From Mobula hypostoma (taxonomy: Eukaryota), in NCBI RefSeq assembly GCF_963921235.1, contig NC_086097.1:96412001-96476000 (forward strand): DNA of 64,000 bases, written 5' to 3'. Below, piece by piece: positions 6,921 to 61,924 of the stretch. The stretch's first letter is position 1; every line of letters starts with the position of its first letter. The position numbers were made by a program, and so were the translations under genes. The notes under the pieces were generated by a model that saw nothing but the letters and a program-made list of their open reading frames with translations, was not told where the DNA came from and made no database searches.

Positions 6921-6956
6921 AGTCAACGTTTCAGGCCGAGACCCTTCGTCAGGACT
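6921..6956 (-). ncRNA. Minimal type-I hammerhead ribozyme motif
   Basis: Minus strand AGTC-CTGACGA-A-GGGT-CTCG-GCCT-GAAA-CG-TT-GACT. Confidence 0.8.
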
Positions 6957-8338
6957 AACTGAAGGAAGAGTGAGTAAGGGATTTGAAAGCTGGAGGGGGA
7001 GGGGGAGATGCAAAACGATAGGAGAAGACAGGAGGGGGAGGGATAGAGCCGAGAGCTGGACAGGTGATAGGCAAAAGGGGATACGAGAGGATCATGGGAC
7101 AGGAGGTCCGGGAAGAAAGACAAGGGGGGGGGTGACCCAGAGGATGGGCAAGAGGTATATTCAGAGGGACAGAGGGAGAAAAAGGAGAGTGAGAGAAAGA
7201 ATGTGTGCATAAAAATGAGTAACAGATGGGGTACGAGGGGGAGGTGGGGCCTTAGCGGAAGTTAGAGAAGTCGATGTTCATGCCATCAGGTTGGAGGCTA
7301 CCCAGACGGAATATAAGGTGTTGTTCCTCCAACCTGAGTGTGGCTTCATCTTTACAGTAGAGGAGGCCGTGGATAGACATGTCAGAATGGGAATGGGATG
7401 TGGAATTAAAATGTGTGGCCACTGGGAGATCCTGCTTTCTCTGGCGGACAGAGCATAGATGTTCAGCAAAGCGGTCTCCCAGTCTGCGTCGGGTCTCACC
7501 AATATATAAAAGGCCACATCGGGAGCACCGGACGCAGTATATCACCCCAGTCGACTCACAGGTGAAGTGATGCCTCACCTGGAAGGACTGTTTGGGGCCC
7601 TGAATGGTGGTAAGGGAGGAAGTGTAAGGGCATGTGTGGCACTTGTTCCGCTTACACGGATAAGTGCCAGGAGGGAGATCAGTGGGGAGGGATGGGGGGG
7701 ACGAATGGACAAGGGAGTTGTGTAGGGAGCGATCCCTGCGGAATGCAGAGAGGGGGGGAGGGAAAGATGTGCTTAGTGGTGGGATCCTGTTGGAGGTGGC
7801 GGAAGTTACGGAGAATAATATGTTGGACCCGGAGGCTGGTGGGGTGGTAGGTGAGGACCAGGGGAACCCTATTCCTAGTGGGGTGGTGGGAGGATGGAGT
7901 GAGAGCAGATGTACGTGAAATGGGGGAGATGCGTTTAAGAGCAGAGTTGATAGTGGAGGAAGGGAAGCCCCTTTCTTTAAAAAATGAAGACATCTCCCTC
8001 GTCCTAGAATGAAAAGCCTCATCCTGAGAGCAGATGCGGCGCAGGCCCCACCTCCCCCTCGTACCCCATCTGTTACTCATTTTTATGCACACATTCTTTC
8101 TCTCACTCTCCTTTTTCTCCCTCTGTCCCTCTGAATATACCTCTTGCCCATCCTCTGGGTCACCCCCCCCCTTGTCTTTCTTCCCAGACCTCCTGTCCCA
8201 TGATCCTCTCGTATCCCCTTTTGTCTATCACCTGTCCAGCTCTCGGCTCTATCCCTCCCCCTCCTGTCTTCTCCTATCATTTTGGATCTCCCCCTCCCCC
8301 TCCAACTTTCAAATCCCTTACTCACTCTTCCTTCAGTT

Positions 8339-8374
8339 AGTCCTGACGAAGGGTCTCGGCCTGAAACGTCGACT
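8339..8374 (+). ncRNA. Minimal type-I hammerhead ribozyme motif
   Basis: AGTC-CTGACGA-A-GGGT-CTCG-GCCT-GAAA-CG-TC-GACT; helix I AGTC/GACT. Confidence 0.85.
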
Positions 8375-8628
8375 GCGCCTCTTCCTATAGATGCTGCTTG
8401 GCCTGCTGCGTTCACAGCAACTTTGATGTATGTTGCTTTTTTTAGAAAATCATAGAAACATAGATGAATTATCACAGTCATTATCCCAATGTAGCAGGGT
8501 CTAAAACTAGAGGATACAAGTTGAAGTGAGAGGAGACCACAATTTAAAGGGAAAGTGAGAGACAACTTTTTCCATACAGAGAAAGGTGGGTGCAGTATAT
8601 GGAATGAGCTGCTAAAGAATGTGATAGA

Positions 8629-8750
8629 GATCAGAATCGGGTTCATTATCACCGGCATGCGTCATGAAATTCATTAACTTAGTAGCAGCAGTAGAATGCA
8701 ATACATGATAATATAAAAAGAAAAAATAAGTAGATCAATTACAGTAAGTA
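8629..8750 (-). mobile_element. 3' tail fragment of a Rex/Babar-like LINE
   Basis: Reverse complement matches the 3' end at 56583-56648 (AATTTCA..CATGC.GGTGATAAT.AACC.GATTCTGAT). Confidence 0.75.
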
Positions 8751-8756
8751 TATATT

Positions 8757-9930
8757 CAGTGCCTATAAAAATACATCACCTTGGAAGTTTTCATATTTTG
8801 TTTTACAACATTAAATCACAGTGGATCTAATTTGGCTTTTTTGACACTGATCAACAGAAAAAGACTTTCCTGTCAAAGTGAAGACATATCTCTACAAAGT
8901 GATCTAAATTAATTACAAATATAAAACAAAATAATTGATTACACAAGTATTTGCCCCCTTCAAGTCAGTAGATGCACCTTTGGTAGCAGTTACAACCTTG
9001 AGACTGTGTGGATAGGTCTCTATCAGCTTTGCATATCTGGACACTGCAATTTTCCCCCCATTCTTCTTTATAAAACTGCTCTAGCTCTGTTGACTGCATG
9101 GGGATTGTGAGTGAACAGTCCTTTTCAAGTCCAGCCACAAATTCTCAATTGCATTGAGGTCAGGATTCTAAATTTGGCCACTCCAGGACATTAACTTTGT
9201 TTTATTTTAAGCCATTCCTGTGTAACTTTGGCGTTATGCTTGGGGTCATTGTCTTGCTGGAAAAAGAAATCTTCTGCCAGGTTGCAGTTCTCTTGCAGAC
9301 TGCATTAGGCTTTCCTCCAGGATTTCCCCGTATTTGCTGCATTTATTTTACCCTCTACCTTCACAAGGTTTCCAGGGCCTGCTGCAGTGAAGCATCCCCA
9401 CAGCATGATGCAGCCACCACCATGCTTCATGGTAGGGATAGTGTGTTTTTGATGATGTACAGTGTTTAGTCCGATGGCCAAAAAGCTCAATTTTGGTTTC
9501 ATCAGACCATAGCACTTTCTTCCAGCTGACTTCAGAGTCTCCTACATGCCTTCTGGCAAACACTAACTGAGATTTCATGAGTTTTTTTTTACAGTGGCTT
9601 TCTCTTTGCCATTCTCCCATAAAGCTGCGACTCGTGAAGCACCTGGGCAACAGTTGTAGGATGCGCAGTCTCTCTCATCTCAGCAACTGAAGCTTGTAAC
9701 TCCTTCAGAGTTGTCATAGGTGTCTTAGTGGCTTCCCCTCACTAGTCCCCTTCTTTCACGGTCACTAAGTTTTTGAGGACTACCTACTCTAGTCAGATTT
9801 ACAGCTGTGCCATATTCTTTCCATTTCTTGATAATTGACTGTACTCCAAGGGATGTACAGTGCCTTGGAAATTTTCTGGTATCCATCCTCTGACTTGTGC
9901 TTTTCAATAACCTTTTCGCCAAGTTGTTGG
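8757..9930 (-). mobile_element. Tc1-family DNA transposon, decayed, one end lost
   Basis: End begins CAGTGCCTATAAAA; minus-strand fragments GYQKISKAL, WKKVLWSDETKIELFG, KHGGGCIMLWGCF, FQQDNDPKH. Confidence 0.92.
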
Positions 9931-13438: not shown

Positions 13439-13639
13439 TACAGAGTCCCCAAATACTGCTGCCATCCTCTTCAGTTTCCTGCCCTTGAGCCACAGGGCCG
13501 GACTCAGTACAGAGACATGACCACTGCTGCTTACCCCAGGTAGGTCATGACCTTGGAAGCAGTTATGATTTTTCAGCTGTATCAGGCTGAAAGGGGAATA
13601 TTTAATTGTATCCATTAAACTTCACTGCACGTGATTGCC

Positions 13640-15203: not shown

Positions 15204-17038
15204 ACAAACAAGAGAAAATCTGCAGATGCTGGAAATCCAAGCAACACACACAATTTGTGAGAGAAACTGAGCAGGCCAGGTAGCATCTACAGAAAGAGTA
15301 CAGTCGACGTTTTGGACCAAGACCCTTCAGCATGACTAGAGAAAAAAAGATGAGGAGTAGAGTTAAAAGGTGGGGGAGGGGAGGGAGAAACACAAGGTGA
15401 TAGCTGAAACCGGGAGGGGAGGGATGAAGTAAAGAGCTGGGAAGTTGTTGGTGAAAGAGATACAGAGCTGGAGAAGGGGGGAATCCAACAGGACAGAACA
15501 GAAGGTCACGGAACAAAGAAAAGGAGTAGAAGCACCAGAGGAAAGTGATGGGCAGGCAAGGAGCAAGGAGATAAGGTGAGAGAGGGTGGGGGGGGGTGGG
15601 CATTACTGGAAGTTTGAGAAATTGATGTTCATGCCATCAGCTTGGAGGCTACCCAGATGGAATACAAGGTGTTGCTCCTCCAACTCGAGTGTGACCTCAT
15701 CGCGACAGTAGAGGAGGCCATGGATGGACATGTCGAAATAAGAATAGGAAGTGGAGTTAAAGTGTGTGGCCACTGAGAGATCTCACTTTTTCTGGTGGAT
15801 AGAGTGCAGGTGCTTGGCGAAGCGGTCTCCCAATCTACGTCATGTTTCATCGATATACGAGAGACCACACCGGGAGCACTGGACACAGTATATGACCCCA
15901 ACAGTCTCACAGGTGGAGTGTTGCCTCACCTGGAAGGACTCTTTGAGGCCCTGAATGGTAGTGAGGGAGGATGTATAGGGGTAGGTGTAGCACTTGCTCC
16001 TCTTTCTTTACAGAAAAGCGCTTCCCTTCCTTCACCAACAACGCTGTCCTCAACTGCATCTATTCCTTTTCACACACGTCTGCTCTTACTCAATCCTCCT
16101 GCCACCCTACCAGGGATAGGGTTCCTCTTGTCTTCACCTACCACCCCACCAGCCTCCACGTCCTGTACGTAGTTCTCTGCAACTTCCACCATCTCCAACA
16201 GGATCCCACCACCAAGCACATCTTTCCCTCACCCCCACTTTCTGCAGGGATCGCTCCCTACGCAACTTCCTTGTCCATTCATCCCTCCCCACTGATCTCA
16301 CTCCTGGCACTTATCCTCGCAAACGGAACAAATGGTACACCTGTCCCTACACCTCCTCTGTCACTACCATTCATGGCCCCAAACAGTTCTTCCAGGTGTG
16401 GCAACGCTTCACCTGTAAGACAGTTGGGGTCATATACTGTGTCCAGTGCTCCCGGTGTGGTCTCTTGTATTATCAGTGAGACCCAATGTAGATTGGGAGA
16501 CTGCTTCAGCAAACGCCTGCACACCGTCCACCAGAATAAGCAGGATCTCCTAGTGGCCACCCTTTACTGTTGTGATGAGGCCACATTCAGGTTGGAGGAG
16601 CAACACCTTATATTCTGCCTGGGTAGCCTCCAGCCTGACAACATAAACATCAATTTTTTGAACTTCTGGTAATGCCCCCCTCCTTCACCATTCCCCATCC
16701 CCTTTTCCCTCTCTCACCTTATCTTCTTGCTTGCCCACCACCTCCCTTTGGCGCTCCTCCCTCTTTTCTTTCTTCCACGGCTTTCTGTCCTCTCCTATTA
16801 AATTTCCCCCTTTTCCAGCCCTGTACTCTTTCACCAATTAACTTCCCACCTCCTTACTTCACCCCTCCCTCTCCCAGTTTCACCTATCACCTTGTGTATC
16901 TCCCTCCTCTCCCTCCCACCTTTTAACTCTACTCCTCATTTTTTTTCTTCTCAGTCCTGCTGAAGGATCTCGGCCCAAAACGTCAACTTTTCCAAAGATG
17001 CTGCCTGGACTGCTGAGTTCCTCTAGAATTTTTGTGTT
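15204..17038 (-). mobile_element. Older Penelope-like element with inverted arms (junction ~16000)
   Basis: GIY-YIG remnants on both strands (LEEQHLIFCLGSLQPDNININF on +); degenerate hammerheads at ~15302-15337 and ~16953-16988; TSD-like GCGTATACCATC (15192-15203) / GCATACACCATC (17039-17050). Confidence 0.9.
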
Positions 17039-17998
17039 GCATACACCATCCTTGGACATATTCTGTTGGATTCAGTTATGACAAGTCATAGATCGTCATG
17101 TTGCCTGTTGCATGCATCACTCAGTACATATTTGCTTCTGTTTTGCAGCTTTGCCAGGCTACCATCTTAGGTTTAGGTATGGCTGGCATTAATCTTTGTT
17201 TGGCCTTTGACATTGCTTATTGAACTAGAACTGACGTCCTTGGTTGATGGTAAAAGTATTGCAAGGTCTTTTATTGTTTGGGTAGCAAGTTAAGACCATG
17301 TGTATCATGGATTGTCAGTTTTCAGCTCCTAGATATGTAATGAATCTACCCTATTTAGCATGATTGTTATACCACAAACATAATGAAAAGTGTTCCCAAT
17401 GTGACAATGGAGCTTTGTCTCTCAAGAAACTGACTGATGTTGATTTTGACTAGTACTACCATACACTGATTCACCTGCAACAGGTAGAAAGGAAAGGGCA
17501 TGGTCAAATGGGAATCTTTCTCACATTAGTTCACTCATAATTTGTTGCAAATTCTTTGGAGGCGTTGTCTTTCTGGACTTGACTGTCTTTGCTGAGTGGC
17601 CTAAGATTTCTTCTAAATATTGTTCAACATAGAGTTACTAATCCTTTTGCTGAGGAAGGATGGTAGGAGATAACCATCAGGAAATTCCTTTGACCATGAT
17701 TGACCTGACTCTAAGCAACTTCATGTGTGCCAAACTACATATAGCCAATGCAATATGTAGTGGATAAGTTTGTCTTTTGGGACAGAATATACATGTGTAT
17801 TGAATGATACAATCTAGGATCTTGTTGTGCTTTCAGAATCATATGTTGCAACTAATATCAAGCCACACTAGTCTGTGAAAGCTCTCCAGATTTAGGCATT
17901 ATTTCCCAGATGATTGTGAGCTGGGTGGAATGGCTAGTTTTATTCTTTAATGCACTATTTTTGAAACAGCAAATGGCTTTTTAGGCAACTTGAGAGGG

Positions 17999-24480: not shown

Positions 24481-26413
24481 GATTACAAATCATCATTAAC
24501 CACCTTTCCATTGCAAGGTCAGATATGGAAATGCCAAATGACAAATCCATTCACAGCTTCTCAAATACTAGCTGCCTCATCTGCATGTATAACAATCGGG
24601 AATAATGAGATAGAGTTTATGCAGTTTATGACAGAAGGGAAAAAGCTGTTCCTGTGGACTGTAAACACTGCACTTTCCAGTGACGCTCTCTTCTTTGAAA
24701 TAACAAGACAGGTAGATTATGTATGGATTTTTAAAATACCTTTGATCAGGATGTAAAAGTCATGAATGAAGTCAGAAAACATGGTCAATAAGATGTTATA
24801 CATACTTTAGATGTGCAAAGGTCTGTGTTTACCACTCACAGGAACAATTTAGATTCAACTGAAACAATTGGATCAAACTACATCAGTGCAGTGTGTCTGC
24901 ACAAAGTGGAGTCGGAGAGTAGTACAGCATGAAAACAGGCCCTTTGGTCCAACTGGCCCATGCGAACCACAGCATCTAGACTGCTAGTCCCAGTTGCCCA
25001 CATTTGGCCCATAACCTTCCAAGCCCTCTCCCTCAAAGTAGCTACACAAATGCCAGAAGGTGAAACCTAACACCATGAATGGCTGTGATGCTTTAATACC
25101 AGATGAGCTCAACACCTTTTGTGCATACATTGAAAGGAAGAATAAAACTACATCTCTGCAGAATCTGGTGTCCCTGTGATCTCTGTCTTGGAGCTGGCGT
25201 CAGAACATCTTTCAAGGGGATGAACCCTTGCAAAGCATCAGGCCCTGGTAGGCACTGAAAAACTGTGCCAACCAACTGGCAGGAGTGTTCAAGGACATCT
25301 TCAATCTCTCACTACTGCAGTCAGAGGTTTCCACCTGCTTCAAAAGGGCAATAATCATATCAGTGCCCAAGAAGAGCACAGTGAGCGGCTTCAATGACTA
25401 TCACCTAGTTGCACTCAAATCTACCGTGATGAAGTGTTTTCAGATGCTGGCCATGGCCAAAATCAACTCTTGCCTAAGCAAGGGCCTGGATCCACTGCAA
25501 TTTGACTATCACCACAACAGGTCTACAGGGATACAATCATACCGGTCTTCTACTCGTTCTTGGATCACCCAGACAACATCAATATCTATGTCAGGCAGCT
25601 GTTTATTAATTACAGTTCAGCATTCAACACCATCATACTCTCAGTACTAAATCAACAAACTCCAAAATCTGGGTCTCTGTACCCCCTCTGCAACTGGGTC
25701 TTGGACTTCCTCATTAGGAAAATTGGAAATAATATCTCCTCCTCGCTGACAATCAATACTGGCACACCTCAAAGATGCGTGCCGAGCCCACTAGTCTACT
25801 CTCTCTATACCCACAATTGTGTTACTAGACACAGGTCAGATGCTCTATAAATTTGCTGAGGACACAACTATTGTTGGGGAATTTCAGATAGTGATGAAGA
25901 AGCATATAGCATTGAGATAGCGCAGCTTTTTAAGTGGTGTCACAACAACAACCCTGCACTCAACATCAGTAAAGACCAAGGAATTCATTGTGGACTTCAG
26001 GAAGGGGAAGTCGAGGGAATGCACACTAGTCATCAAGGAATCAGAACTGGAAAGGGTGAGCAGTTTCATATCCTTGGTGGGGGTAACATCTCTGAAGATC
26101 CATCCTGGGCCCGACATATTGAGGCAATTACAAAGAAAGCACAACAGCACCTGTATTTCATTTCAAGTCTGAGGAGATTTAGTATGTTACCAAAATCTAT
26201 CTCAAATTTCTGCAGATGTATCGTGGAGAGCATTCCAACTGGTTGTATCACTGTCTGGAGAGGCCACTGCACAGGATAGGAAAAAGCTGCAGAAAGATAC
26301 AAACTCATCTTCACAAGGCAAACACAAAATAATCTGCAGATGCTGGGGTCAAAGCAACAGTCACAACACGCTAGAGGAACTCAGCAGGTCGGGCATCATC
26401 TGTGGAAAAGATC

Positions 26414-26449
26414 GGTCGATGTTTCGGGCTGGAACCCTTCATCAGGACT
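26414..26449 (-). ncRNA. Minimal type-I hammerhead ribozyme motif
   Basis: Minus strand AGTC-CTGATGA-A-GGGT-TCCA-GCCC-GAAA-CA-TC-GACC. Confidence 0.78.
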
Positions 26450-28296
26450 GAAGAGGGAAGGGGCAGAGGCCCTATAAAGAAGGTGGGGGGAGGGTGGGAA
26501 GGTTCCAGGTGAAAAACCAGTAAGGGGAAAGATAATAGGGTGGGGGAGGGGAGGCAGGGAGGTGATAGGCAGGAAAGGTGAAGAAAGAATAGGGGAAAAC
26601 ACAATGGGTAGTAGAAGGAGGCAGAACCATGAGGGAGGTGATAGGCAGCTGGGGGAGGGGGCAGAATGAAATAGGGATAGGGGAAGGGAGGGGGAGGGAA
26701 TTACCGGAAGTTGGAGAATTCTATGTTCATACCAAGGGGCTGGAGACTACCTAGACGGTATATGAGGTGTTGCTCCTCCGACCTGGGTTTAGCCTCATCA
26801 TGGCAGTAGAGGAGGCCATGTATGGACATATCTGAATGGGAGTGGGAAGCAGAGTTGAGGTGGGTGGCTACTGGGAGATCCTGTCTGTTTTGGCGGACGG
26901 AGTGGAGGTGCTTGACGAAGCGGTCCCCCAATCTGCATCAGGTTTCACTGATGTAGAGGAGGCTGCACCGGGAGCACCGGATGCAATAGATGACCCCAAC
27001 AGACTCACGAGTGAAGTGTTGCCTCACTTGGGAGGACTGTTTGGGACCCTGAATGGTGGACAAACTTCCACTCAGCCCTCAAATTCACTTGGGTCTACCT
27101 CGGACACTTCGCTCCCTTTCTCGATCTCTCAGTCTCCATCTCTGGAGACAGACTGTCCACTGATATCTTCTACAAGCCCACTAATTCTCATAACTACCTC
27201 AACTATACCTCTTCCCACCCTGCCACATGCAAAAATGCCATTCCCTATTCCCAGTTCCTCCGTCTCCGCTGCATCTGCTCCGAGGATGAGGTTTTCTGTT
27301 CCAGGACATCTCAAATGTCCTCTTTCTTTAAGGATCATGGTTTCCCTTCTGCTGTCATCAATGATGTCCTCACACGCATCTCCTCCATTTCCCGCACTTC
27401 GGCTCTCACCCCATCCTCCCGCCACAACAGGGACAGAGTTCCCCTTGTCCTCACCTACCGCCCCACCAGCCTCCGGATCCAGCACATTATCCTCCGCAAC
27501 TTCCGCCACCTTCAACAGGACCCCACCACTAAGCACATCTTTCCCTCTCCACCCCTCTCCGCCTTCTGCAGGGATCGGTCCCTCCGTGACTCCCTGGTCC
27601 ACACGTCCCTCCCCACGGATCTCCCACCTGGCACTTATCCCTGTAAGCACAAGTGCTGCACCTCCTCTCTTGCCACCATTCAGGGCCCCAAATAGTCTTT
27701 CCAAGTGAGGCAACACTTCACTTGTGAGTCTGTTAGGGTCATCTATTGCATCCGGTGCTCCCGGTGCAGCCTCCTCTACATCGGTGAGACCCGACGCAGA
27801 TTGGGGGACCGCTTCGTTGTGCACCTCCGCTCCGTCCGCCAAAACAGACAGGATCTCCCAGTAGCCACCCACTTCAACTCTGCTCCCCTCTCCCATTCAG
27901 ATATGTCCATACCTGGCCTCCTCTACTGCCATGATGAGGCTAAACTCAGGTTGGAGCAGCAACACCTCATATACCGTCTAGGTAGTCTCCAGCCCCTTGG
28001 TATGAACATAGAATTCTCCAACTTCTGGTAATTCCCTTCCCCTCCCTTCCCCTATCCCTATGTCACTTTGCCCCCCTCCCCCAGCTGCCTATCACCTCCC
28101 TCATGGTTCCGCCTCCTTCTACTACCCATTGTGTTTCTCCTATTCTTTCTTCACCTTTCCTGCCTATCACCTCCCTGCCTCCCCTCCCCCACCCCTTTGC
28201 CTTTCCCTTTACTGGTTTTTCACCTGGAACCTACCAGCCTTCTCCTTCCCACCCTCCCCCCACCTTCTTTATAGGGCCTCTGCCCCTTCCCTCTTC

Positions 28297-28332
28297 AGTC
28301 CTGACGAAGGGTTCCGGTCCGAAATGTCGACC
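28297..28332 (+). ncRNA. Minimal type-I hammerhead ribozyme motif
   Basis: AGTC-CTGACGA-A-GGGT-TCCG-GTCC-GAAA-TG-TC-GACC. Confidence 0.75.
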
Positions 28333-28626
28333 GATCTTTTCCACGGATGCTGCCTGACCTGCTGAGTTCCTCCAGCATGTTGTGAGTGTCATCTTCATAA
28401 GGCCACGCCTCAGAAAGGCGGCATCCATCATTAAGACTCCCAGCACCCAAGACATGCCCTCTTCCCATTGCTACTATCAGGGAGGTAGTACAAGAGCCTA
28501 AACACTCAATGTTTTAGGAATAGATTCTTCCCATCTGCTATCAGATTCCTGAATGGATAGTGAATGCGTGTCCACTACCTCACTACTTTGTTCATTTTTC
28601 TTGTTCTTTTTGTCACTATATATTTA

Positions 28627-28649: not shown

Positions 28650-29588
28650 GATTCCAAACAAGTGGTTTCTATGTCTGCTTACCATTATCAAACCAGTCTA
28701 GTAGTTTTCCGAAAGGTATTGCCAGAGCTTCTACAAAATAATATTTCTTTAAAATACTATTCTAATATACCATCAGATAAAGCAATTTATATTGGATCTT
28801 TGATTTAACCAGATTGACTGACTTCACTGAAAAAATTAGAGAACCCCCCCTAAAAAGGACCCGAAATCCTTCTTTTAGATCACATCTAACCATCAAAGAT
28901 GAAAATCTGCTTCTTCATCTCAAAGTCAAACTGATTGTCATATGACAAATACATTATTGCACAGGTGCAACAAAAAAAAACTTGCAGCAGCATTATGGTA
29001 CCATAGCATCATATAAGCAGTATTTACAAGAAAAAACATGAATTATACACTTCTTTTTTTACAAGAACAAAGTCCATTTTAGTGCAAAGTGATCAAAATC
29101 CTCAATATTGTATTCTATCATCAGAACATTACTTGAAATAAAGGGTTACCCAAAACCACAGACAGTTGAGAACCGGATGAATTAACAGCCTCCAGCTTGT
29201 TGAATTCACATTCTAAAATGGGAGACGTCAAAACATCAGTGGTAGTTTAAAACTGTTCCATTAATTCAGACATAACAGGTCTCCTCCAGCGAAAAATTAT
29301 CGAAGACAGTTTATGTTCATTTGACCCAGCTGAAACAGTGCTTTTAATTTAGTTTACATATGTGACCTTCCACAACATTCAAATATTTAAATTTCAGATT
29401 TTGGTAATGGTCTTGGAAAGGATTCAGTGTTTATTTTCAATTATATTTCTTCTTTCACTGAATAAACTAATTTGCTTAGCACCAAAAGCAGATAAACATA
29501 ACATGTAACCTGTTACAGGTTAATGCAACATAACATGCAGCTGCTGTGTACCTTTTACTCATTAAGACTACAAGATATAAGAGCAGAA

Positions 29589-29716
29589 ACAAGAGAAAAT
29601 CTGCAGATTCTGTAAATCAAAGCTACACATAAAAAATGCCAAAGGAACTCAGCAGGCCAGGCAGCATCAATGGAAAAGTGTAAACAGTCAAGGTTTCAGG
29701 TTAAGTCCCTTCACGG
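29589..29716 (-). mobile_element. Short Penelope 3'-terminal fragment
   Basis: Homologous to 15204-15330; 8-bp TSD GAGCAGAA (29581-29588, 29717-29724). Confidence 0.8.
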
Positions 29717-34659: not shown

Positions 34660-34737
<78 letters not shown>

Positions 34738-35761: not shown

Positions 35762-35882
35762 GAAAAGATCTGCAGATGCTGGAAATCCAAAGCAACACGC
35801 AGAAAGTGTTGGAGGAACTCAGCAGGTCGGGCAGCATCTATGGGAGAGAGTAAATAGTTGACACTTCGGGCCATCAGGACTC
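35762..35882 (-). mobile_element. Short Penelope 3'-terminal fragment, hammerhead partly deleted
   Basis: TCTGCAGATGCTGGAAATCC...CAGCATCTA terminus shared with the other copies. Confidence 0.8.
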
Positions 35883-44291: not shown

Positions 44292-46277
44292 GGACTAGAT
44301 TATAACAGGAAATATCTAATGCTGAAATTTCATAAGGGATTGGTCAGACCATATCTAGAGTAATGTGAACTGTTTTGGGCTCATATCTACAAGGATGTCC
44401 TGGCATTGGAGAGGGTCTAGAGGAGGTTTGTGAGAATGATCATGGGAATGAAAAAGTTAACATATGAGAAGTTTTTAACACTTCTGGGTCAAAGTTTTGA
44501 AGGATGAAGGGGCATCATTTTGAAACCTTCTGAATAATGAAAGACCTGAAGTGGACATTGAGAGGATGTTTCCAGTAGCGGGACAGCCTAGGACAAGAGA
44601 ACACAGCCTCTAAATATAAGGACATCAGTTTAGAACAATGATGAGGAAGAATTTCTTTAGCTAGTGGAGGTGAATCTGTGGAACTCATTGCCATAGATGG
44701 CTGTGAAGGCCAAATTATTGGGTATATTTAAATTGGAGGTTGATAGATACTTGATTAGTAACAGCATCAAAGATTAGGTGATGGAGGCACAAAAGTGGGC
44801 TTGAGAGGGAAAATAAATCAGCCATGGTTGAATAGAAGAGGAGAATCAATGAGTTGTATGGTCTAGTTCTATTCCTATGTCTCATGGTCTTATGCTTGGA
44901 TTCAGAGCATATGGGCGAAGTACTTCATGTTAATGTTCAACAAGGAGAAAGAAATAGAGGATAATCAGATTAGTGTCGGTATGCTAAATGTGCTAGGGCA
45001 TTCAAATCAAGAAGGAGGTGGTGCTGAGTGTTTTGAAGAGCAGCAAGACGTAAAAGTCCTTGAGGCCTCATGGTATACATTCCAGTACATTGAAAAAGGC
45101 AAGAGAAGAGACTGCTCGGGCTTTGATGAAGATCGTTGCATCTTCACTAGAGTGGGCAATGGGTTTTTTTGTTGTTCAAGGAGAGTAAAAAGGATGATCC
45201 AGTAAATTGTAGGGAGACTAGTCTTACACCAATGGCAGAGAAGCTATTGGAGAGGATTCTCAGGGATAGAATTTATGTGCATTTGGGGGGGAGAAAGGCC
45301 TGATTAGAGACAGTCAGCATTGTTTTGTGCCAAACAGGTCACACCTTACAAACCTGATTATTTTGATGTAACAACGGTGAATGATGAGGATAAGGCAGTG
45401 GACGTTGTCTCTTGAATTTTAGTAAGGCACTTGACAGGGTTCCTCATGGTAGGCTGATCCAGAAAGTTAAAATACATGGAATCCAAGGTGACTTGGTAGC
45501 TTGCCCATTGAACACAGAAGGTAGTGGCAGAAATGTATTATTTTCACTCCAAGTTCATTACCAGTGATGTTCTGTGGGAATCTGTGGGAATCAGTGTTGC
45601 GACCTCTGTTGTTTGTGATTATATGACTGGGGGAGCAGCGGAGAGTATAGAGGGATATAACAGAATATAGCTCACTTACAAATATGGACAGAAAGTATAC
45701 AATTAATGATAGGGCCCTTAAGTGTGCGTGTCACCAAAGTAAAAATGAAATGAACACGTTTTCCCAGGCTCCCGTGTTTTTCTTTTGACTAGTTTTAGAG
45801 TTTGAAAACATAACAGTGTTGATGAGACAAGTGTTGAAATGAACCCAAGACAACTAAAGCACTGAAGCACAGCGAGGTGGTAATTTAAAAAAAGCACAGC
45901 TCCTGTTTTTTTTGGAAGGAGAGAAAAACATTCAAATTTTTAAATAAGGTAGAAAATGAACAAAATTCATGGGTTCATAAACAGTGTGCAGCGGGTGATA
46001 ATAATCAAATAAAGTAACAAAACAGAAATGGCCAACTACATTGGAAAGACAGATGCATTTGGTTGCACAATAGATAACTGGATCATGTATACTGAATGAA
46101 TTGAGCAATATTTTGAAACAAATGAAATAGCCAATGGAAAGTGAGTGCCAATTTTGTTGAGCACAATTAGTGGAAGAGCAAACAACAGGAATTCTGCAGA
46201 TGCTGGAAATTCAAGCCACACACATAAAAGTTGCTGGTGAACGCAGCAGGCCAAGCAGCATCTATAGGAAGAGGCGC

Positions 46278-46313
46278 AGTCGACGTTTCAGGCCGAGACC
46301 CTTCGTCAGGACT
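46278..46313 (-). ncRNA. Minimal type-I hammerhead ribozyme motif
   Basis: Minus strand AGTC-CTGACGA-A-GGGT-CTCG-GCCT-GAAA-CG-TC-GACT. Confidence 0.85.
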
Positions 46314-46608
46314 AACTGAAGGAAGAGTGAGTAAGGGATTTGAAAGCTGGAGGGGGAGGGGGAGATGCAAAATGATAGGAGAAGACAGGAGGGGGAAGGA
46401 TAGAGCCGAGAGCTGGACAGGTGATAGGCAAAAGGGGATACGAGAGGATCATGGGGCAGGAGGTCCGGGAAGAAAGACAAGGGGGGGGGTGACCCAGAGG
46501 ATGGGCAAGAGGTATATTCAGAGGGACAGAGGGAGAAAAAGGAGAGTGAGAGAAAGAATGTGTGCATAAAAATGAGTAACAGATGAGGTACGAGGGGGAG
46601 GTGGGGCC

Positions 46609-47683
46609 TTAGCGGAAGTTAGAGAAGTCGATGTTCATGCCATCAGGTTGGAGGCTACCCAGACGGAATATAAGGTGTTGTTCCTCCAACCTGAGTATGG
46701 CTTCATCTTTACAGTAGAGGAGGCCGTGGATAGACATGTCAGAATGGGAATGGGATGTGGAATTAAAATGTGTGGCCACTGGGAGATCCTGCTTTCTCTG
46801 GCGGACAGAGCGTAGATGTTCAGCAAAGCGGTCTCCCAGTCTGCGTCGGGTCTCACCAATATATAAAAGGCCACATCGGGAGCACCGGACGCAGTATATC
46901 ACCCCAGTCGACTCACAGGTGAAGTGATGCCTCACCTGGAAGGACTGTTTGGGGCCCTGAATGGTGGTAAGGGAGGAAGTGTAAGGGCATGTGTAGCACT
47001 TGTTCCGCTTACACGGATAAGTGCCAGGAGGGAGATCAGTGGGGAGGGATGGGGGGGACGAATGGACAAGGGAGTTGTGTAGGGAGCGATCCCTGCGGAA
47101 TGCAGAGAGAGGGGGGGAGGGAAAGATGTGCTTAGTGGTGGGATCCCGTTGGAGGTGGCGGAAGTTACGGAGAATAATATGTTGGACCCGGAGGCTGGTG
47201 GGGTGGTAGGTGAGGACCAGGGGAACCCTATTCCTAGTGGGGTGGTGGGAGGATGGAGTGAGAGCAGATGTACGTGAAATGGGGGAGATGCGTTTAAGAG
47301 CAGAGTTGATAGTGGAGGAAGGGAAGCCCCTTTCTTTAAAAAATGAAGACATCTCCCTCGTCCTAGAATGAAAAGCCTCATCCTGAGAGCAGATGCGGCG
47401 GAGACGGAGGAATTGCGAGAAGGGGATGGCGTTTTTGCAAGAGACAGGGTGAGAAGAGGAATAGTCCAGATAGCTGTGAAAGTCAGTAGGCTTATAGTAG
47501 ACATCAGTGGATAAGCTGTCTCCAGAGACAGAGACAGAAAGATCTAGAAAGGGGAGGGAGGTGTCGGAAATGGACCAGGTAAACTTGAGGGCAGGGTGAA
47601 AGTTGGAGGCAAAGTTAATAAAGTCAACGAGTTCTGCATGCGTGCAGGAAGCAGCGCCAATGCAGTCGTCGATGTAGCGAAGG
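46609..47683 (-). pseudogene. Uninterrupted C-terminal part of Penelope ORF (RT RYIDD, thumb, Cys linker, GIY-YIG endonuclease)
   Basis: LRYIDD, LPFLD, YYKPT, HP..CK..IPFSQ.LR..RIC, CKRNKCYTC, VIYC..YIGET; no stop over ~357 codons. Confidence 0.93.
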
Positions 47684-49953
47684 TAGTGGAAGAGCATACA
47701 GTTTGATTGCTCCAACCAAACCAGCTGAAATGAGCTTTGCTGATATCATGAGTGTAATGCAGCAAAATTTATAACTTAAACTATTGTTGATTGTAGAACG
47801 CTTTAGGTTTCATAAGCGGAATCAAAAGGCGGGGGAGTCCATTTCAGTTTACATGGCTGAATTGAAGAAATAGTCTGAGCATTGCCAGTTCAGTGACGGC
47901 CTTAATAACACACTGAGAGATTGTTTAGTTTGTGGAATCTTATAAGAAGGCATTCAAAAATGGCTCCTAAATGAAGCACAACTTATATTGAAAAGAGCAG
48001 TTGAAGTTGCTGTAGCAATGGAAACATCAGTCAGAGATACAAGTGGATTGCAGTCAGGAACAAAATTGGATGTGAACAAAATTGCAAAGTCTAAACAGAA
48101 ACCTGCCTGGCCAAACAAATTGCGTTACCATCATGGCAGGGGTTCACATACATCAGACCAATGCAGGTTTAAAAGGCAAAACTTGCAGAAAATGCAAAAA
48201 AGTAGGTTACATACTAAGATCATGTTGGGCAGACAAAATAAATTGATTGCACAGGGAAGAGCAAAAGATAAAAAAATCAAGTTGCAGTATCAAAAAGAAC
48301 ACTAATTTGCATGCTGTTGATGAACAATCTGACAATGATGAGAATGACACAGGACTGACTAGTCTTGAGATTTACAATGTGAAAACTAACAAATAAGCAA
48401 TATCACTTAAACCAGGAGTGAACTGCAAATTAATTAAAATGGAATTGGACACTGGCTCGGCTGTTTTTATTATTCCACAAAATGAGCTTGAATGGCATTT
48501 CAAAGCCTACAGATGTCCATTAAGAACTTATAGTGGAGAAAAGACAAGTCCTGTGGGAATGGCATTTGTAACAGTGAAGTACAACAACCAACAAGCCACA
48601 TTCGGTGTGTATGCTGTAAAAAAAAGATGGCCAGCATTGTGGGGTCATGATTGACTGAGGCAACTACAACTTGACTGGAGATCCACCCACCATTTGTATG
48701 CCACATCCCCTGCAACAGAGTCAACTGAAGGTGAATTAAGAAAAGTACGGGATGCTGACACATCAGTGCTTAAGGATGGAATTGGAAAACTCAGATGTAT
48801 CAAGGGTAAAGTAGTCTTAAAGGAAAATACCACAATCAAGTTTTACAAAGCCTGTCTGGTTCCTTATACCTTCTGTGATAAAGTAGTCAGTGAGCTAGAT
48901 CACATGGAAGCTGAAGTAATTCTTTCCAAGGTTGAGTGGTGCAACCAAGAAGGATGGGTCTGTCAGGATGTGTGGTTATTCTAAGGTCACCATCAACCCA
49001 GTACTGAAAGTAGATTAATACTTCCTGCTCAGTCTAGAGGATATCTTTGCAAACCTTTCTGGAGAAAAACACTTCAGCAAAGTGGACTTAGCTGTGGCCC
49101 ACCTACAGACAAAGATGGAAGAAGGGCCAAAGTGCTTCTCACCATAAATACTCACAAAAAGTTTTATCACTAAAATAGGCTTATTTTTGGAGAAGCATTT
49201 CCACCTGCACTCTGACAGAAAGCAGTGGACAAGGTGCTTGTGCAAAGCTGCCCATGCACTCAGTGTAACCTGGGTGACATATTGTGAGGATGACAAGGAA
49301 CATCTCCAAAATCTCAAGACAGCGTTAAAAAGATTTGAAGATTATGGGCTCACAGCATGACACAACAAGTATGAATTCTTTAAACTGAGCATCATTTACT
49401 GTGGTCACACTATTGATGCACAAGAATTACACAAGAGTGCTGAGAAAATTCAAGTAGTGGTGAATGCCAAAGGACATGTCACAGTTGGGGTCCTTTTTAT
49501 GATTTGTCAATTACTATAACATGTTTCTGCCAAAACTGGCTACTGTGCTCTACCCCTTGAACTCATTACTACCAATCGGGAAGAAATGGCAATGGACAAA
49601 ACAGTGTGAAGTAGCTTTCCAAAGGACAAAGGAAATGGCAAAATCAGGCACTGTACTCACACATTATGATACACATTGATCAGTGAAGCTTGCCTGTGAT
49701 GTCTTGCATTTATGGTATAGGTGCAGTCATGTCACATGCTGAGTGATGAAAGTGAATGCACCACAGCCTTTGTATCACATTCACTTACTGCTGCACAGAA
49801 AAATTGCACACAGTTTGACAAAGAGGCCTTGAATCTGGTTTGGAGTCTGAAACACAAACAACAGGAATTCTGCAGATGCTGGAAATTCAAGCAACACATA
49901 TCAAAGTTGCTGGTGAACGCAGCAGGCCAGGCAGCATCTCTAGGAAGAGGTAC

Positions 49954-49989
49954 AGTCGACGTTTCAGGCCGAGACCCTTCGTCAGGACT
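49954..49989 (-). ncRNA. Minimal type-I hammerhead ribozyme motif
   Basis: Minus strand AGTC-CTGACGA-A-GGGT-CTCG-GCCT-GAAA-CG-TC-GACT. Confidence 0.85.
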
Positions 49990-50069
49990 AACTGAAGGAA
50001 GAGTTAGTAAGAGATTGGTAACTGAAGGAAGAATTAGTAAGAGATCTCTTACTAACTCTTCCTTCAGTT

Positions 50070-50105
50070 AGTCCTGACGAAGGGTCTCGGCCTGAAATGT
50101 CGACT
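50070..50105 (+). ncRNA. Minimal type-I hammerhead ribozyme motif
   Basis: AGTC-CTGACGA-A-GGGT-CTCG-GCCT-GAAA-TG-TC-GACT. Confidence 0.8.
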
Positions 50106-50300
50106 GTACCTCTTCCTAGAGATGCTGCCTGGCCTGCTGCGTTCACCAGCAACTTTGATGTGTGTTGCTTGGGGTCTAACACATTTCAACTTGTACTTGT
50201 ACGGGAGAGAGTTTACCCTCATTACTGATCATCAACTATTAATGTCCATTTTCAATCCACAGAAGGGTGGTCCATTTAAAAGCAGCAGCACGATTGCAGA

Positions 50301-50380
50301 CAACACACATCAAAGTTGCTGGTGAACGCAGCAGGCCCGGCAGCATCTATAGGAAGAGGTACAGTCGACGTTTCGGGCTG
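50301..50380 (-). mobile_element. ~80-bp Penelope terminal fragment, truncated inside the hammerhead
   Basis: Matches 49892-49970; splits Gypsy ARLQ/RWAL codons. Confidence 0.85.
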
Positions 50381-52181
50381 AATGGGCTCTGTTTCTTGGT
50401 GGACACAATTACAAGGTCGAATTCATGAGGATGATGACTCGTGGAAATGCCGATGAATTGTCCTATACATCCTTGCAAACAGAAGTACCTGAAAATTTTA
50501 CAAGAAAAGGACATTCCTCTCAATGTATTCTCCCTAATGCAAATCAGAAGTCTTCCTATTATGGCAGAGATGATCCAAAGTAAAACCTGAAAAGACTCCA
50601 TACTGTCTCAGGTCCACATGACCACCCAAAGGGCTGAAATGTGCAGCAGAAATACCAGTTCCACCATTTTTGCCAGCACCAGGATGAACTTTCTCTTGAT
50701 GGAGGTTGCCTCATGTGGGGATTGAGAGTTGTTGTACCATCCCTGCTGAGAGCTGAAGTGTTGGAGGAGCTACATGCCAGTCATCTAGGCATGGCTAAAA
50801 ACTTTGTCCGATGGCCTGGGATAGATCAGCAGGAACAGCTTCCCATGAAGTGTTTGGATGCCAACACTTGCAGAAGATGCCACGAGCAGCTCAACTCCAT
50901 CTGTGGGAATGGCCTGCATTGCCCTGGCAAGGATTCATGTGAATCTTGCCAGACCATTCACGGGCATGAATTTCTTGATAGTAGTGGATTCAGCTACGGT
51001 CAGAAGTATTTTCACTACAGCCTCGCAGAATGTTGATATGTTGAGAAGCCTCATCTCAAGGACTGGTGTTCCAGAACACTTAGTCAGTGACAATGGACTA
51101 AAGTTTGTTGCGGAATATCTTCAGTCATTCCTGAATGGAGTAAGACATATCACATCTGCACTGTACCACCCAGCTATAAATGGTGTGGCAGAAAGGTTTC
51201 TCCAGAGTCTAAAGAACACACGCCACGGCGAGCAATGTCAGATGAACATGCTATATTGACACTGAATCAGAAAATCGCCAATTTCTTCCTTACATATCGC
51301 AATGCTCCACACTCTATATCCAAAAACTCACCAGCTATGCTGTTCCTGGGATGTCCTTTGCACTCACGTTTGGATCTCCTCAAACCCAATCTCAGAAGTA
51401 TGCAGGACAAACAGCTGAGACAAACTGAAGACTGCTCAAAAAAGCGGATTCGATGTTTCACTCCTGGACAAGAATTCCTGATGAGGGACTACAGAGGTAA
51501 TCAAAAGTGGGTACTTGGAAAGATTAAGGGACAGAACTGGACCACTTTCCTACACAGTGGAGATTGTGTCTGAGGTCATCTGGAGACAACATATTGATCA
51601 GTGAGGAAAGCAGAATCAATTGTTAGAGAATAAAGGTGTCCAGAGCTTTCAGAACCACTTCCAGTAGTCCCAGAGTCAACTCCTACAACCTCCATTGGGG
51701 CGGTCCCAGAACCTGAGATTGTTTCACAGCCATGTCTCAGCTGCTAAGCAAAGTGACACCCACTGGTCAGAAAAGACATTATCCAATAAGAGTAAGAAAT
51801 CCTTCAGAGCTATTATATCTTTAGGCCTGAATGGGACAATTTAAAATTTACTATGCTGTGGATGTATATATGACTAGAGAACAATACACTTCATATTTGA
51901 GTTGAGATGCATTTTCTATTGAGTTGGCGTTTATAGCTAAGCAGAGAGGTGTATTGTGTATTTAATATTTCATATTTGAGTAATATTGGAAATATATTGC
52001 TTGATTGATCATTCTTTTACTTAAATCATTACAGATAGTATGTAAAAGTATGTGAATAAGATATGTCATTATGCCACCATGTCATAAGTGCATGCGTCAG
52101 TAAAGTAAAAACAAAGTAGACCTGTTTTCCTAGCCTCCCATATTTTTCTTTCGATCAATTTTCGAGTTATAAAACATAACA

Positions 52182-52879: not shown

Positions 52880-52893
52880 TGGTGACCCCGACG
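52880..52893 (+). promoter_or_regulatory. Primer-binding site complementary to tRNA-Trp 3' end
   Basis: TGGTGACCCCGACG right after the 5' LTR; matches the start of the known tRNA-Trp PBS TGGTGACCCCGACGTGAT. Confidence 0.85.
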
Positions 52894-53291
52894 GTCCAAC
52901 GGCATTTGGATCCAACATAAACGACTCGGCTCTGCAGAATGCAGTTTCCCTTAAACTGCCAACCTTCTGGACCACTCAACTCCTGGTCTGGTTTGAGCAA
53001 GTGGAGGCACAGTTCCAGGTCAGGCAAATTGTCTCAGACGCCACCAGGTATTACTATGTGGTGGGTGCCCTCGACCAAGAGACAGCAGGCCGCATTATTG
53101 ACTTTCTGCATCAGCCCCTGGCAACAGACAGGTACGAGGCACTCAAGGCCCTGTTAATCCGCACATTTGGCCTCTCCCGCTGCAAACGGCCGCGTGGTTA
53201 CTGCATATGGACCAGCCTGGGCAGCCACGTGCCATCAGCCCTGATGAGCGACGTGCTAGCACTGGCAGATGGCCATAAACCTTGCCTGCTG

Positions 53292-58221: not shown

Positions 58222-58224
58222 ACA

Positions 58225-59520
58225 TATTCTGTAGATGCTGGAAATCCAGAGCAACATACACAAAATGTTGGAGAAACTGAGCAAGCTAGGCAGCATCTAT
58301 TTCAGATTGTGATCCTTCATCAGGACCTGATCAGCACAAATCTGCAGGCAGCAAATTTGTGAAAACGGGCGAAAAGACAAGGGAATCATGGAGGGAGTTA
58401 TCCCTGCAGATAGTGGAGAGTGTGGGGTAAGTGAAGATGTGTTTGGTAGTAGGATCTCGTTGAAGGTGGTGGAAGTTGTGAAGAATGATGTGTTGGATGT
58501 GGAGGCTCATGGGCTAGTAGGCGAGGACTAGAAGAACTCTATTCCTGTTAAGATGGCAGGAAGGAATGAACATAGAGATCTGAGAAATAGAGGAGATGCA
58601 GGTGAGGGCAACATCAATAGTGGAGGAAGGAGGACATGTCTGATCTGGAAAGGAAATCCTCGTCCTGGGAACAGGTGATTAAGGGACAGAATAAAGGGAA
58701 TAGCAATTTTAGAGGAGACGGTGGTAAGAGGTACAGTCAAGATAGTCATGGGAATCTCTTGGTTTATGAAAGATGTTGGTAGACAGTTTGTCTCCAGAGA
58801 TGGAGATAGATTAAGAAAGGGGAGTGGAGGGTCAGAAATGGACCAAGTGAATTCAAAGGAACGGTGGAAGTTGAAGGAAAAAATGATTAAATTGATGAGC
58901 TCAGCATGGGTGCATGAAGCAGCATCATTGCAGTTGTCAATGTAGTGCAGAAAGAGTTGGGGAGCAGTAGCATGGAAGGCTTGGACATGAACTGTTCCAC
59001 ATAGCCAATGAAAAGGCAGGCATAAATGAGGCCCATAGCTACCTCTCAAGTCTAGAAAAAATGGGAGGAGCTGAATGAGAAATTGTTGAGGGTGAGGACC
59101 AGTTCTGCCAGACGGTGAAGAGTGTTGGAGCAGGGGAACTGGCTCAGTCTTTTTTTGAGAATGAAGCAGAGAGCTTTAAGCCTTCTTGATGAGGTATAGA
59201 GGTGTATAGGGAGTGGATATCATCCATGATGAAAATGATGTGGTCAGAGCAGGGATTGAGCACGTTTGAAGTGTTGTGGATGCAGGTGGGAAAGGACTGA
59301 ACCAAGGGGGATAGAATGGAGTCAAGGTACGTGAACATGAATTCAGTGGGGCAGGAGAAGGCAGACACTGTAAGCCTACCTGGACAGTTACGTTTGTGAT
59401 TCTTGGGCAGGAAGTAGAAATGAGCCCAGCGGGGTAAGGTAACTGAGCTTGATGGCAGTGGATGGGAGATCTCCAGATTCAGTGAGGTTAGTGATGGTGC
59501 AGGAGACAGCAGCATGATGG
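58225..59520 (-). mobile_element. Old Penelope-like element, decayed and internally deleted
   Basis: FYFLPKNHK..PGR..VSA.SCPTE, SLYTSIPH, LFLHYIDN; terminus with hammerhead core at 58300-58327. Confidence 0.85.
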
Positions 59521-59872
59521 TTCGGAGACTGCCTGTTCAATTTAAACAGGAGTGAATGTTACTCAAATAAACATGGTGCTTGTTAACTTATTGGTGTCTC
59601 AACTTCAATGTATTGCATAGATATCCTTTCCTAACTGTACTTGTGTCCTGTATGTTAGTTAGTGTTAATTGTTTTTTTTTAACTTACATTTTTAAGTCAG
59701 AAATATCTGGGTTATCCAAATGATAAAATTCCATGATGTTGGAATGTAATTTTTGAGTGACTTTAACTGCTGAAATAATGCTAATAATTTTGTGCCTGTT
59801 ATACAATTTAAACAGGAGTTGAATGCTATTCAACTAAACAAATTGTTTGTTAACTTATGAGTGCCTCAACTT

Positions 59873-61797
59873 AAGACCTTAAGACATAGGAGCAGGATTA
59901 GGCCATTCAGCCCAAAGAGTCCGGTCTTCTATTTCATCATGGCTGATCCCGAATCCCATTCTATCCTATACACCTGCCCTCTCACCATATCCCTTGATGC
60001 CCTGACCAATCAGGAATCTATCAACTTCCACTTTAAACATATCCATGTACTTGGCCTCCACCACAGTCTATGGCAGAGCATTCCACAGATTCACTTCTCA
60101 TTGGCTTAAAAAATTCCTCCTTACTTCTGTTCTAAAAGGTCGCCCCTCAATTTTGAGGCCGTGCCCTCAAGTTCTCGATGCCCCCAACAGAGGGAACATC
60201 CTCTCCACATCCATCTTGTCTAATACTTTCAACATCCGGTAGGTTTCAATGAGATTCCTCCTCCCCCCGCCCCACCAGCATTCTACTAAATTCCAGTGCA
60301 TACAGGCCCGAAGCTGCCAAATGCTCCTCATATGTTGCCCCCTTCATTCCTGGAATCATCCTCGTGAACCTCCTCTAGGTTCTCTCCAATGACAATGCAT
60401 CCTTTCAGAGATAAGGGGCCCAAAACTGTTGGCAATACTCCATGCGGCCTGACTAGTGTCTTATAAAGCTTCATCATTATCTCCTTGTTTTTAATGTGCT
60501 ATTCCCCTTGAAATAAAAGCCAACATTGCATTTGCCTTCTTTACCTGAGACTCAACCTGTGAATTAACCTTCTGGGAATCTTGCAAGGCGACTCCCAAGT
60601 CCCTTTGCACCTCTGATGTTTGAATTTTCTGTCCATTTAGATGATAGCATGCACTATTGTCCCTTTTACCAAAGTGCATTATCATACGTTTCCCAACACT
60701 GTATTCCATCTGCCACCTTTTTGCCCATTCTTCCAATTTGTTTAGTACCTGCTACAATTGCATTGCTTCCTCAGCACTACCTACCCATCCACAAACTTTG
60801 CCATAAAGCCATCAATTCCACTATCTAAATCATTGACAAACAATGTGAAAAGTGGCTGTCCCAATGCTGACCCCTGAGGAACACCACTAGTCACTGGCCC
60901 CCTTTATGCTCACTCACTGCCTTCTGCCTGTCAGCCATTCCTCTATCCATGCCAGTATCTTTCCTGTAACACCATAGGATTTTATCTTGTTAAGCAGCCT
61001 CATATGAGGCACTTTATCAAATGCCTTTTGAGAATCTAAGTAAATGACATCCATTGCCTCTCCTTTGTCCATCCTCTTGTTACTTCCTCAAAGAATTCTG
61101 ATAGATTCCTCAGGCAAGATTTCCCCTTACAGAAACCATGCTGACTTTGACTTACTTTATCATTGGTCTTCAGAAATCCTAAAACCTCATTCTTAATAAT
61201 AGATTCCAACACTTTCCTAACCACTGAGGTTAGGCTGGCTGTCCTATAATATGCTCTTTTGTTTTCCTCCCTTCTCAAAGAATGGAGTGACTTTTGCAAA
61301 TTTTCAGTACACTGGGACCATGCCAGAATCAAGTGATTCTTGAAAGATCATGACCAATGCATCTGTTATCTCTTCAGCAACCTCTTTCAGGACTCTGGGA
61401 TCTAGTCCATCTGGTCCAGGTGTCTTATCCACCTTAAGACCTTTCAGTTTGCCTAACGCTTTTCCCTTTGTAATAGCAATGGCACTCACTCCTACTCCCT
61501 GACACTCATGGACCTCTGGCATACTACTAGTGTCTTCCACAGTGAAGACTGAAACAAAGTACTTATTATGTTCATCTGCCATTTCTTTGACCCCTCTACT
61601 TCACCGGCATCATTTTCCAGTGGTTCAATATCAACATTCACCTCTGTTTTATTCTTTATATAACTGAAAAAACTTTTAGTGTCCTGCTTTATATTATCGG
61701 CTAGCTTGCTCTCATATTTCATCTTTGCCCTCATAACTTTTTTTTAGTTGCCTTTTGTTAGATTTTAAAAGTTTTTCAATCATCCAACTTCCCACTC
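59873..61797 (-). mobile_element. CR1 LINE ORF2 fragments and 3' end
   Basis: PGPDGLDPRVLKE, YRTASLTS, QHGFCKGKSC, KKANAMLAFI; tail at ~59873. Confidence 0.9.
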
Positions 61798-61924
61798 ACG
61801 AAGGGTCTCGGCCCGAAACGTCGACGGTACTTCTTCCTAGAGATGCTGCCTGGCCTGCTGCGTTCACCAGCAACTTTGATGTGTGTCGCTTGAATTTCCA
61901 GCATCTGCAGAATTCCTCGTATTT
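61798..61924 (+). mobile_element. Penelope terminal fragment starting inside the hammerhead core
   Basis: ACGA-A-GGGT-CTCG-GCCC-GAAA-CG-TC-GAC followed by the shared terminus. Confidence 0.88.

Follow-up and report, generated by a model that had tools for sequence, protein, structure and literature searches.

Minimal hammerhead motifs of a Neptune-type Penelope-like element in Mobula hypostoma: evidence for selection on the fold in source elements and for decay of the dispersed copies

Minimal hammerhead ribozymes (min-HHRs) of metazoan Penelope-like elements, those of fish Neptune elements included, were described in 2014 (Cervera and De la Pena, PMC4209133), and the supplement of that paper gives their consensus as NNN CUGANGAH G..C GAAAN palindrome NU H NNN; such motifs stayed uncut as monomers and were cleaved at a low level as dimers. 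The motif of the green anole element Poseidon was cut only with protein, and two sites downstream of it served as starts of reverse transcription (Frangieh et al. 2024, PMC11167929). Neptune and Nematis elements are defined by a linker and by domain order (Craig et al. 2021, PMC8557442), and all three papers call the role of Penelope hammerheads unclear. Here, we compare with these systems a 64,000-nt stretch of the Mobula hypostoma genome (contig NC_086097.1, positions 96,412,001 to 96,476,000; "the window" denotes its whole length) in which copies of a Neptune-type Penelope-like element carry hammerhead motifs. The data support selection on the fold in the source elements, while the dispersed copies decay neutrally. 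We further propose, with a probability of roughly 0.7, that transcripts of tandem copies are cleaved conditionally, by pairing of two copies or with the help of a protein, and that dispersed copies would be inert.

A structure descriptor requiring the core and at least 3 bp in each of helices I and II found seven intact motifs in the window, with C3 at 6952, 26445, 46309, and 49985 on the minus strand and at 8343, 28301, and 50074 on the plus strand, whereas 100 dinucleotide-shuffled windows gave a mean of 0.05 motifs and a maximum of 1. A profile search recovered all 14 listed copies, seven damaged ones among them, and all 11 core bases are present in 7 of the 14. The seven intact cores and seven damaged copies claimed by a first-pass annotation were thus borne out, at the coordinates it gave; its five helix II strings are all present, and its cleavage position after 8370 is correct as the predicted site (C17 = C3 + 27). 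Intact cores of the young subfamily lie at 6921..6956 (minus strand, H17 = U), 8339..8374 (plus strand, predicted cleavage after 8370), and 46278..46313 (minus strand); the others lie at 49954..49989 (minus), 50070..50105 (plus), 26414..26449 (minus), and 28297..28332 (plus). The helix I ascribed to them, AGUC/GACU, is found in five of the seven, the motifs at 26445 and 28301 having AGUC/GACC and hence 3 bp. Likewise, the ACGU palindrome of helix III is whole in four, having become ACAU at 26445 and AUGU at 28301 and 50074. Of the at least three subfamilies claimed, the seven intact motifs represent two (5 + 2), and further subfamilies are found among the damaged copies.

Like the published min-HHRs, the motif has a type-I topology, CUGANGA followed by one extra base, a closing pair at G10.1, and a helix III reduced to a palindrome, and it shares their U-rich 5' flank, their terminal-repeat location, their mostly solitary truncated copies, and their opposite-strand pairs (PMC4209133). 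It has every testable sequence feature of a Penelope min-HHR; for this family, self-cleavage is predicted. The assignment to minimal type-I hammerheads of Penelope termini holds, with the fold conserved across subfamilies, and the annotation's view that motifs of this kind probably need dimers agrees with the inactive monomers and the low dimer cleavage reported (PMC4209133). Its comparison of the extra A with a viroid hammerhead has to be dropped, since the additional base is part of the published Penelope consensus CUGANGAH (PMC4209133). To place the window in its genome, we sampled 1.464 Mb (the window, 0.2 Mb of neighboring DNA, and 1.2 Mb across large contigs); of 286 profile matches, 167 that cover core and tail were used and 119 partial ones were dropped. 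The extra base between positions 9 and 10.1 is A in 159 of these 167 copies. Membership in the canonical type-I class, with its capped helix III and loop contacts (Rfam Hammerhead_1), is not indicated: Rfam 15 gave the window no hammerhead-family match at E <= 5, and the Hammerhead_1 search that the annotation had proposed as a check came back empty. Five weak matches to microRNA and long non-coding RNA models were traced to a microsatellite, the palindrome at 49989-50071, and chance, and were rejected.

With minimal hammerheads in Penelope termini known since 2014, the identification itself adds little. The contribution of this genome lies in the scale and the history of the family, with identical young copies in the tens of thousands, several subfamilies that can be dated, one tandem copy that is intact, and a sub-lineage in which a catalytic base has changed. 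One exact 32-mer occurs 35,656 times genome-wide, and in evenly spaced stretches totaling 1.2 Mb, the core is intact in 55 of the 133 copies that cover it, which extrapolates to about 160,000, compared to 4,000 to 9,000 for coelacanth and frog (PMC4209133). A stricter descriptor gave 27 matches in 0.8 Mb, 26 of them from this Penelope-like family. Further differences from the published motifs are a G10.1-U11.1 pair in the young subfamily, the A6C sub-lineage discussed below, and a host lineage outside the species lists of that paper (PMC4209133). The literature searched, which did not include Repbase, Dfam, or some supplements, gave no description of the family from this lineage, and a shark or ray precedent is possible.

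The nature of the host element is best seen in a full-length copy, L136 (G000:C2:8697001-8706600), which has a repeat at 4300-4635, a coding frame, and a second repeat at 7816-8145. The frame has 1,064 open codons (1,016 amino acids from the Met at 4698), and since it is unbroken, the family must be very young. Its protein (P0001) contains DKG (ADKGG), YIDD, a CX4CxxC linker (CKRNKCYTC), and, at the C terminus, a GIY-YIG domain in a single frame with the reverse transcriptase (RT). Two hammerheads at 4532 and 8048 lie in direct orientation, in the sense of the frame and 3,516 nt apart; L115 is a second full-length, tandem-ended copy with a motif spacing of 3,511 nt. In this layout, some 300 nt separate the GIY-YIG stop from the motif, and some 140 nt lie between the motif and the start codon of a tandem copy. 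The single frame, the DKG, the RT, the CX2-5CxxC linker before the endonuclease, and the C-terminal GIY-YIG are features of the Neptune clade, as are partial tandems, inverted 5'-truncated arms, and an optional tail of 30 to 40 nt (PMC8557442). From these sequence features, we regard the host as a Neptune-type element, the choice of Neptune over Nematis resting on the motifs, the host, and a match to an Acropora Neptune hammerhead: the motif listed in PMC4209133 recurs letter for letter in L253, a relative found here. Of the named relatives among the 120 listed, a bamboo shark protein has the highest identity (72%), which points to a cartilaginous fish as the probable host. An approximately 80% pyrimidine tract ending in AG abuts the core (8060-8340 in the window, 4300-4531 in L136), and its composition, not its sequence, is kept across subfamilies. 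Splicing at this acceptor-like AG, as in Drosophila Penelope, was considered but gained no support: copies that begin at -2 have no upstream sequence in common, the AG is absent from relatives, and a search for spliced copies gave none. The tail past the motif (L136, 4580-4650) is conserved across subfamilies, with a predicted hairpin, and it includes an out-of-frame ATG in more than 150 of the 167 copies (16 codons in L136).

Selection on the fold is evident from comparison of source elements. Between the young subfamily (17 copies) and a second subfamily termed GATC (5 copies), the core differs at 0 of 11 positions, the stems at 1 of 15 (G-C to G-U), and N7 plus the loop at 2 of 5; hence, 1 of 26 core and stem positions has changed. 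Over the same divergence, the endonuclease differs at 7/118, 8/118, and 47/113 of first, second, and third codon positions, and the upstream tract is no more similar than shuffled sequence. Across four subfamilies, the ten core bases other than A6 are invariant, and N7 is C, U, or A. Furthermore, we collected 90 related loci from public contigs, of which 26 had enough downstream DNA to be eligible. The motif lies 96 to 304 nt after the frame in 8 of the 26, with none on the other strand and none in 50 shuffles. If matches are sought by core only, with pairing not required and chance matches kept (15 distinct of 23), 73 of 90 cells pair, against a mean of 47.3 and a maximum of 62 in 10,000 shuffles, a control that ignores relatedness. 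Even so, the relatives show CG, AU, UA, and GC pairs at one and the same position of helix I. Compensating changes in helices I and II are therefore found across relatives, but not among copies within the genome. A search of viral contigs for relatives found none; Penelope-like elements with hammerheads (L321-L330) also occur on contigs deposited under bacterial metagenome-assembled genomes, which probably reflects contamination by animal host DNA.

Within the genome, the copies tell of decay. The annotation had claimed covariation in helix II, but two-sided changes are at chance level, with 2 in 660 cells against about 2.7 expected; by pair, the counts are 0, 0, 2, and 0 against 0.14, 0.38, 2.08, and 0.12 in shuffles. 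In four of the five helix II strings in the window, the 5' strand is a constant GGGU, and the differences are C>T on the 3' strand or lie in the loop. The sole two-sided change in the window (G-C to A-U) sits in the broken copy at 58300, and this change has 2 cases in 164 copies against 2.08 in shuffles. CpG-linked columns have 51 departures per column and other columns 17. Given the chance-level two-sided changes and this threefold excess, the helix II variants in the window are CpG decay plus G-U wobble, not compensation; the G-rich 5' strand tolerates such wobble by construction. At positions 15.2 and 16.2 of the palindrome, 113 and 124 of the 167 copies have C and G, respectively, and the remainder is mostly CpG decay. 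Thus, the claim that the motifs are kept by selection stands for source elements across subfamilies and fails for the dispersed copies. That the latter are themselves selected as working host ribozymes might be read from the 55 of 133 intact cores in random stretches, but the intact cores concentrate in the young subfamily, and in the old group, G12 has become A in 33 of 69 copies. Moreover, among the ten pairs, compensation goes beyond shuffles at I.1 alone (8 against 4.0, p 0.02), which is a CpG-linked column, and we find a host function scarcely credible. A second changed-core subfamily with A9C was also considered but lacks genome-wide support: C is the rarest letter among 52 exact genome-wide matches with a base other than A at position 9, yet it is found in 6 of the 167 sampled copies.

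How might such a motif act? In our model, the transcript of a tandem copy would carry two hammerhead motifs, which could swap strands through the ACGU palindrome and so form a 4-bp helix III; alternatively, the element's own protein may help the motif to fold. Cleavage after C17 would set free an RNA of unit length. The likely start of reverse transcription is 90 to 135 nt downstream of C3, with a template that was never cut at the site or was re-joined there, and nearly all copies would retain the motif for this reason. Single and head-to-head copies, as in the window, are likely inert: the four window pairs (C3 at 6952-/8343+, 15333-/16957+, 26445-/28301+, and 49985-/50074+) lie head to head on opposite strands, which makes a dimer within one transcript impossible. 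A second copy would be unneeded if the motif cut as a monomer, stabilized by unrecognized contacts or by the element's protein. This would agree with the anole motif, which was cut after addition of protein (PMC11167929), and with the rarity of direct tandems (one clear full-length case among 205 sampled copies). However, neither a loop I nor a tertiary partner is evident, published monomers were inactive (PMC4209133), and 10 of the 15 distinct core-only matches of relatives have CG at 15.2-16.2, although the search did not require it, which fits intermolecular pairing; we consider cleavage as a monomer very unlikely.

Several observations weigh against conditional cleavage of tandem transcripts. 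In a folding model without tertiary terms, the favored fold is a hairpin that pairs G5-G8 with 15.2-17 (-10.0 against -6.0 kcal/mol), and for two strands, the hammerhead dimer at -9.5 falls far short of the optimum at -28.3. Core mutants of the anole motif left insertion in vitro unaffected, and none of the RNA reads had its end at the site (PMC11167929); Naiad elements spread without canonical hammerheads (PMC8557442). The motif was not seen in 18 of the 26 eligible relatives. Of 71 young copies, 5 that reach the edge of a stretch were set aside; among those used, 1 of 66 has its 5' end exactly at the cleavage site, with a junction made ambiguous by the self-complementarity of helix I, and 60 of 66 span the site, so that their template must have been uncut or re-joined there. 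Finally, a sub-lineage was amplified with A6C (core CUGCUGA), a change found in 20 of the 167 sampled copies, about 12% of those covering the core. On the other hand, the predicted hairpin would lock G5-G8 onto the cleavage site and would thereby explain the need for a partner or a protein. Single-strand folding of four stretches gave no z-score beyond shuffles.

The fold may instead be kept for another job, in that it marks the 5' end of the RNA or presents the downstream start site to the protein, with cleavage being dispensable. The position of the 5' ends is in line with this: they peak at the 5' edge of the hammerhead, at -4..+2, with 14 of 66 in a 12-nt bin around C3, and not at +28. The downstream tail is conserved too, and the anole core mutants, as noted, still insert (PMC11167929). 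The excess of A6C also fits, for the five other A positions together have 12 A>C changes in 835 cells (p 4e-9), and among exact 32-mers genome-wide, C6 (70) outnumbers G6 (18) and T6 (13), with A6 at 1,275. The opposite is suggested by the ten other core bases, which are invariant in four subfamilies while N7 varies, as expected from catalytic constraint. In addition, the youngest and largest wave has A6, and hammerheads with A6C remain active with Mn and from 1 mM Mg upward (0.067 per min at 1 mM; PMC7151607). On balance, we regard this explanation as unlikely. Both the pair of A6 and C6 and the 5'-end peak bear on whether cleavage matters to the element.

The ends of the young copies deserve a closer look. 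Half of the 5' ends (33/66) fall between -50 and +32 and 5/66 between -300 and -50; 7 of the 14 copies in the C3 bin are inverted partners. The peak could be explained by a start site, by a roadblock of protein at the pyrimidine tract, or by a strand switch at helix I. In the head-to-head junction of L097 (5612-5815), a single case, the arms start at -4 and +28 and overlap by the letters of helix I, as if strands had been switched at the cleavage site or by way of helix I. A candidate target duplication is present in 6 of 15 solitary short copies, and short copies of about 100 to 140 nt with target duplications were seen at L075, L067, L174, and L186. The 3' ends, counted from C3, form two clusters, +87..102 (23/55) and +122..141 (26/55), both of which lie inside the conserved tail. 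This two-site tail resembles the two reverse-transcription start sites of the anole element, in which the tail is likewise delimited by a pair of 3' end sites about 60 to 110 nt after a minimal hammerhead (PMC11167929). Unlike in Poseidon, whose start codon overlaps helix II (PMC11167929), the likely start here is about 140 nt past the cleavage site, and the protein has the Neptune linker.

The A6C copies form a sub-lineage: 16 of the 20 fall in a 33-copy short-spacer group (p 4e-10), and a linked loop variant is present in 26 of the 70 C6 matches compared to 10 of the first 100 A6 rows. Among 30 fetched C6 loci (L191-L220), endonuclease remnants lie directly upstream in about half, and two loci belong to the young family and carry a private change. 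From 14 copies in 1.2 Mb, we estimate about 40,000 old A6C copies. The natural hammerhead of phage Bcep176 has the identical core change, CUGCUGA, although that ribozyme is from a bacterial virus and was tested in vitro, while the present one is a sub-lineage of a vertebrate retrotransposon known from sequence (PMC7151607). With A6C, the rate of another hammerhead at 0.3 mM Mg fell from 0.30 to 3.6e-6 per min, but the same A6C hammerhead still cut at 1 mM Mg (0.067 per min) and with Mn (PMC7151607), and C6 copies therefore cannot be called dead. We found no report of A6C in Penelope elements in a literature search that did not extend to Repbase, Dfam, and some supplements. A tree of 50 of 63 rows (2 overlapping and 11 near-identical young rows omitted) gives weak support to a young wave nested among C6 copies, and a single C6 clade is compatible with the data (approximately unbiased test, p-AU 0.158). 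It is imaginable, but doubtful, that cleavage is dispensable or metal-switched in this family and that the motif mainly marks the 5' end of the copied RNA. If true, a protein-coding C6 sub-lineage made about 40,000 copies and may have founded the later A6 wave, a natural experiment on the role of the hammerhead. A6C would also disrupt the predicted inhibitory hairpin over the cleavage site.

All copies in the window are 5' truncated, and each motif lies on the same strand as, and about 300 nt past, a frame ending in GIY-YIG, or else within a short fragment of that end; the Pfam matches to GIY-YIG are weak (E 1e-4 to 7e-4, one of three above the cut-off). The first insertion comprises the RT-region end, GIY-YIG domain, pyrimidine tract, hammerhead, and tail at 6821..8044 (minus) and an inverted short arm with tract, hammerhead, and tail at 8043..8439 (plus). 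The old copy at 15205..16004 (minus) and its inverted second arm at 15998..17040 (plus) belong to the A6C sub-lineage (C3 at 15333 minus and 16957 plus); the damaged hammerheads at 15302..15337 (minus) and 16953..16988 (plus) also have G12>A, the former with C3>A in addition. The GATC subfamily is represented by arms at 26333..27059 (minus) and 27063..28389 (plus, inverted, with remnants of the RT end and GIY-YIG). A young copy at 46178..47683 (minus) retains an open frame (46612-47683) with RT end, CX4CxxC, and GIY-YIG, followed by tract, hammerhead, and tail. Short copies without coding part form the head-to-head pair at 49855..50171 (49855-50016 minus, 50044-50171 plus). Further short copies lie at 29579..29714 (minus, old, beginning within the core, which is damaged), 35769..35881 (minus, old, G8 to helix II deleted), 50301..50381 (minus, truncated within helix II), and 61795..61943 (plus, truncated at the core start). 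The old fragmented copy at 58226..58945 (minus) is the source of the GGAU/AUCU string, and its hammerhead (58300-58330, minus) lacks 15.2 through the 3' strand of helix I. Animal non-long-terminal-repeat retrozymes also have type-I hammerheads derived from Penelope termini, with one chondrichthyan case reported, but they are head-to-tail non-coding arrays (bioRxiv 10.64898/2026.07.22.740005). The copies in the window are single or head to head, several with coding remnants, and the 205 sampled copies include pairs only and no array, which speaks against membership in that group.

Other repeats share the window. Remnants of long interspersed nuclear elements, which we take to be CR1/L2-like, lie at 30592-33959 and 60490-61347 and include reverse transcriptase sequence (Pfam RVT_1, E 1e-20). 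A tandem array with a 30-nt unit, open in several frames, spans 43284-43643. Broken frames at 47946-51573 and 52620-54774, presumably gag/pol pieces of long-terminal-repeat retrotransposons, are accompanied by a 224-nt direct repeat at 52620 and 54551, and the hammerhead copies at 49855-50381 are inserted into the first of these two regions.

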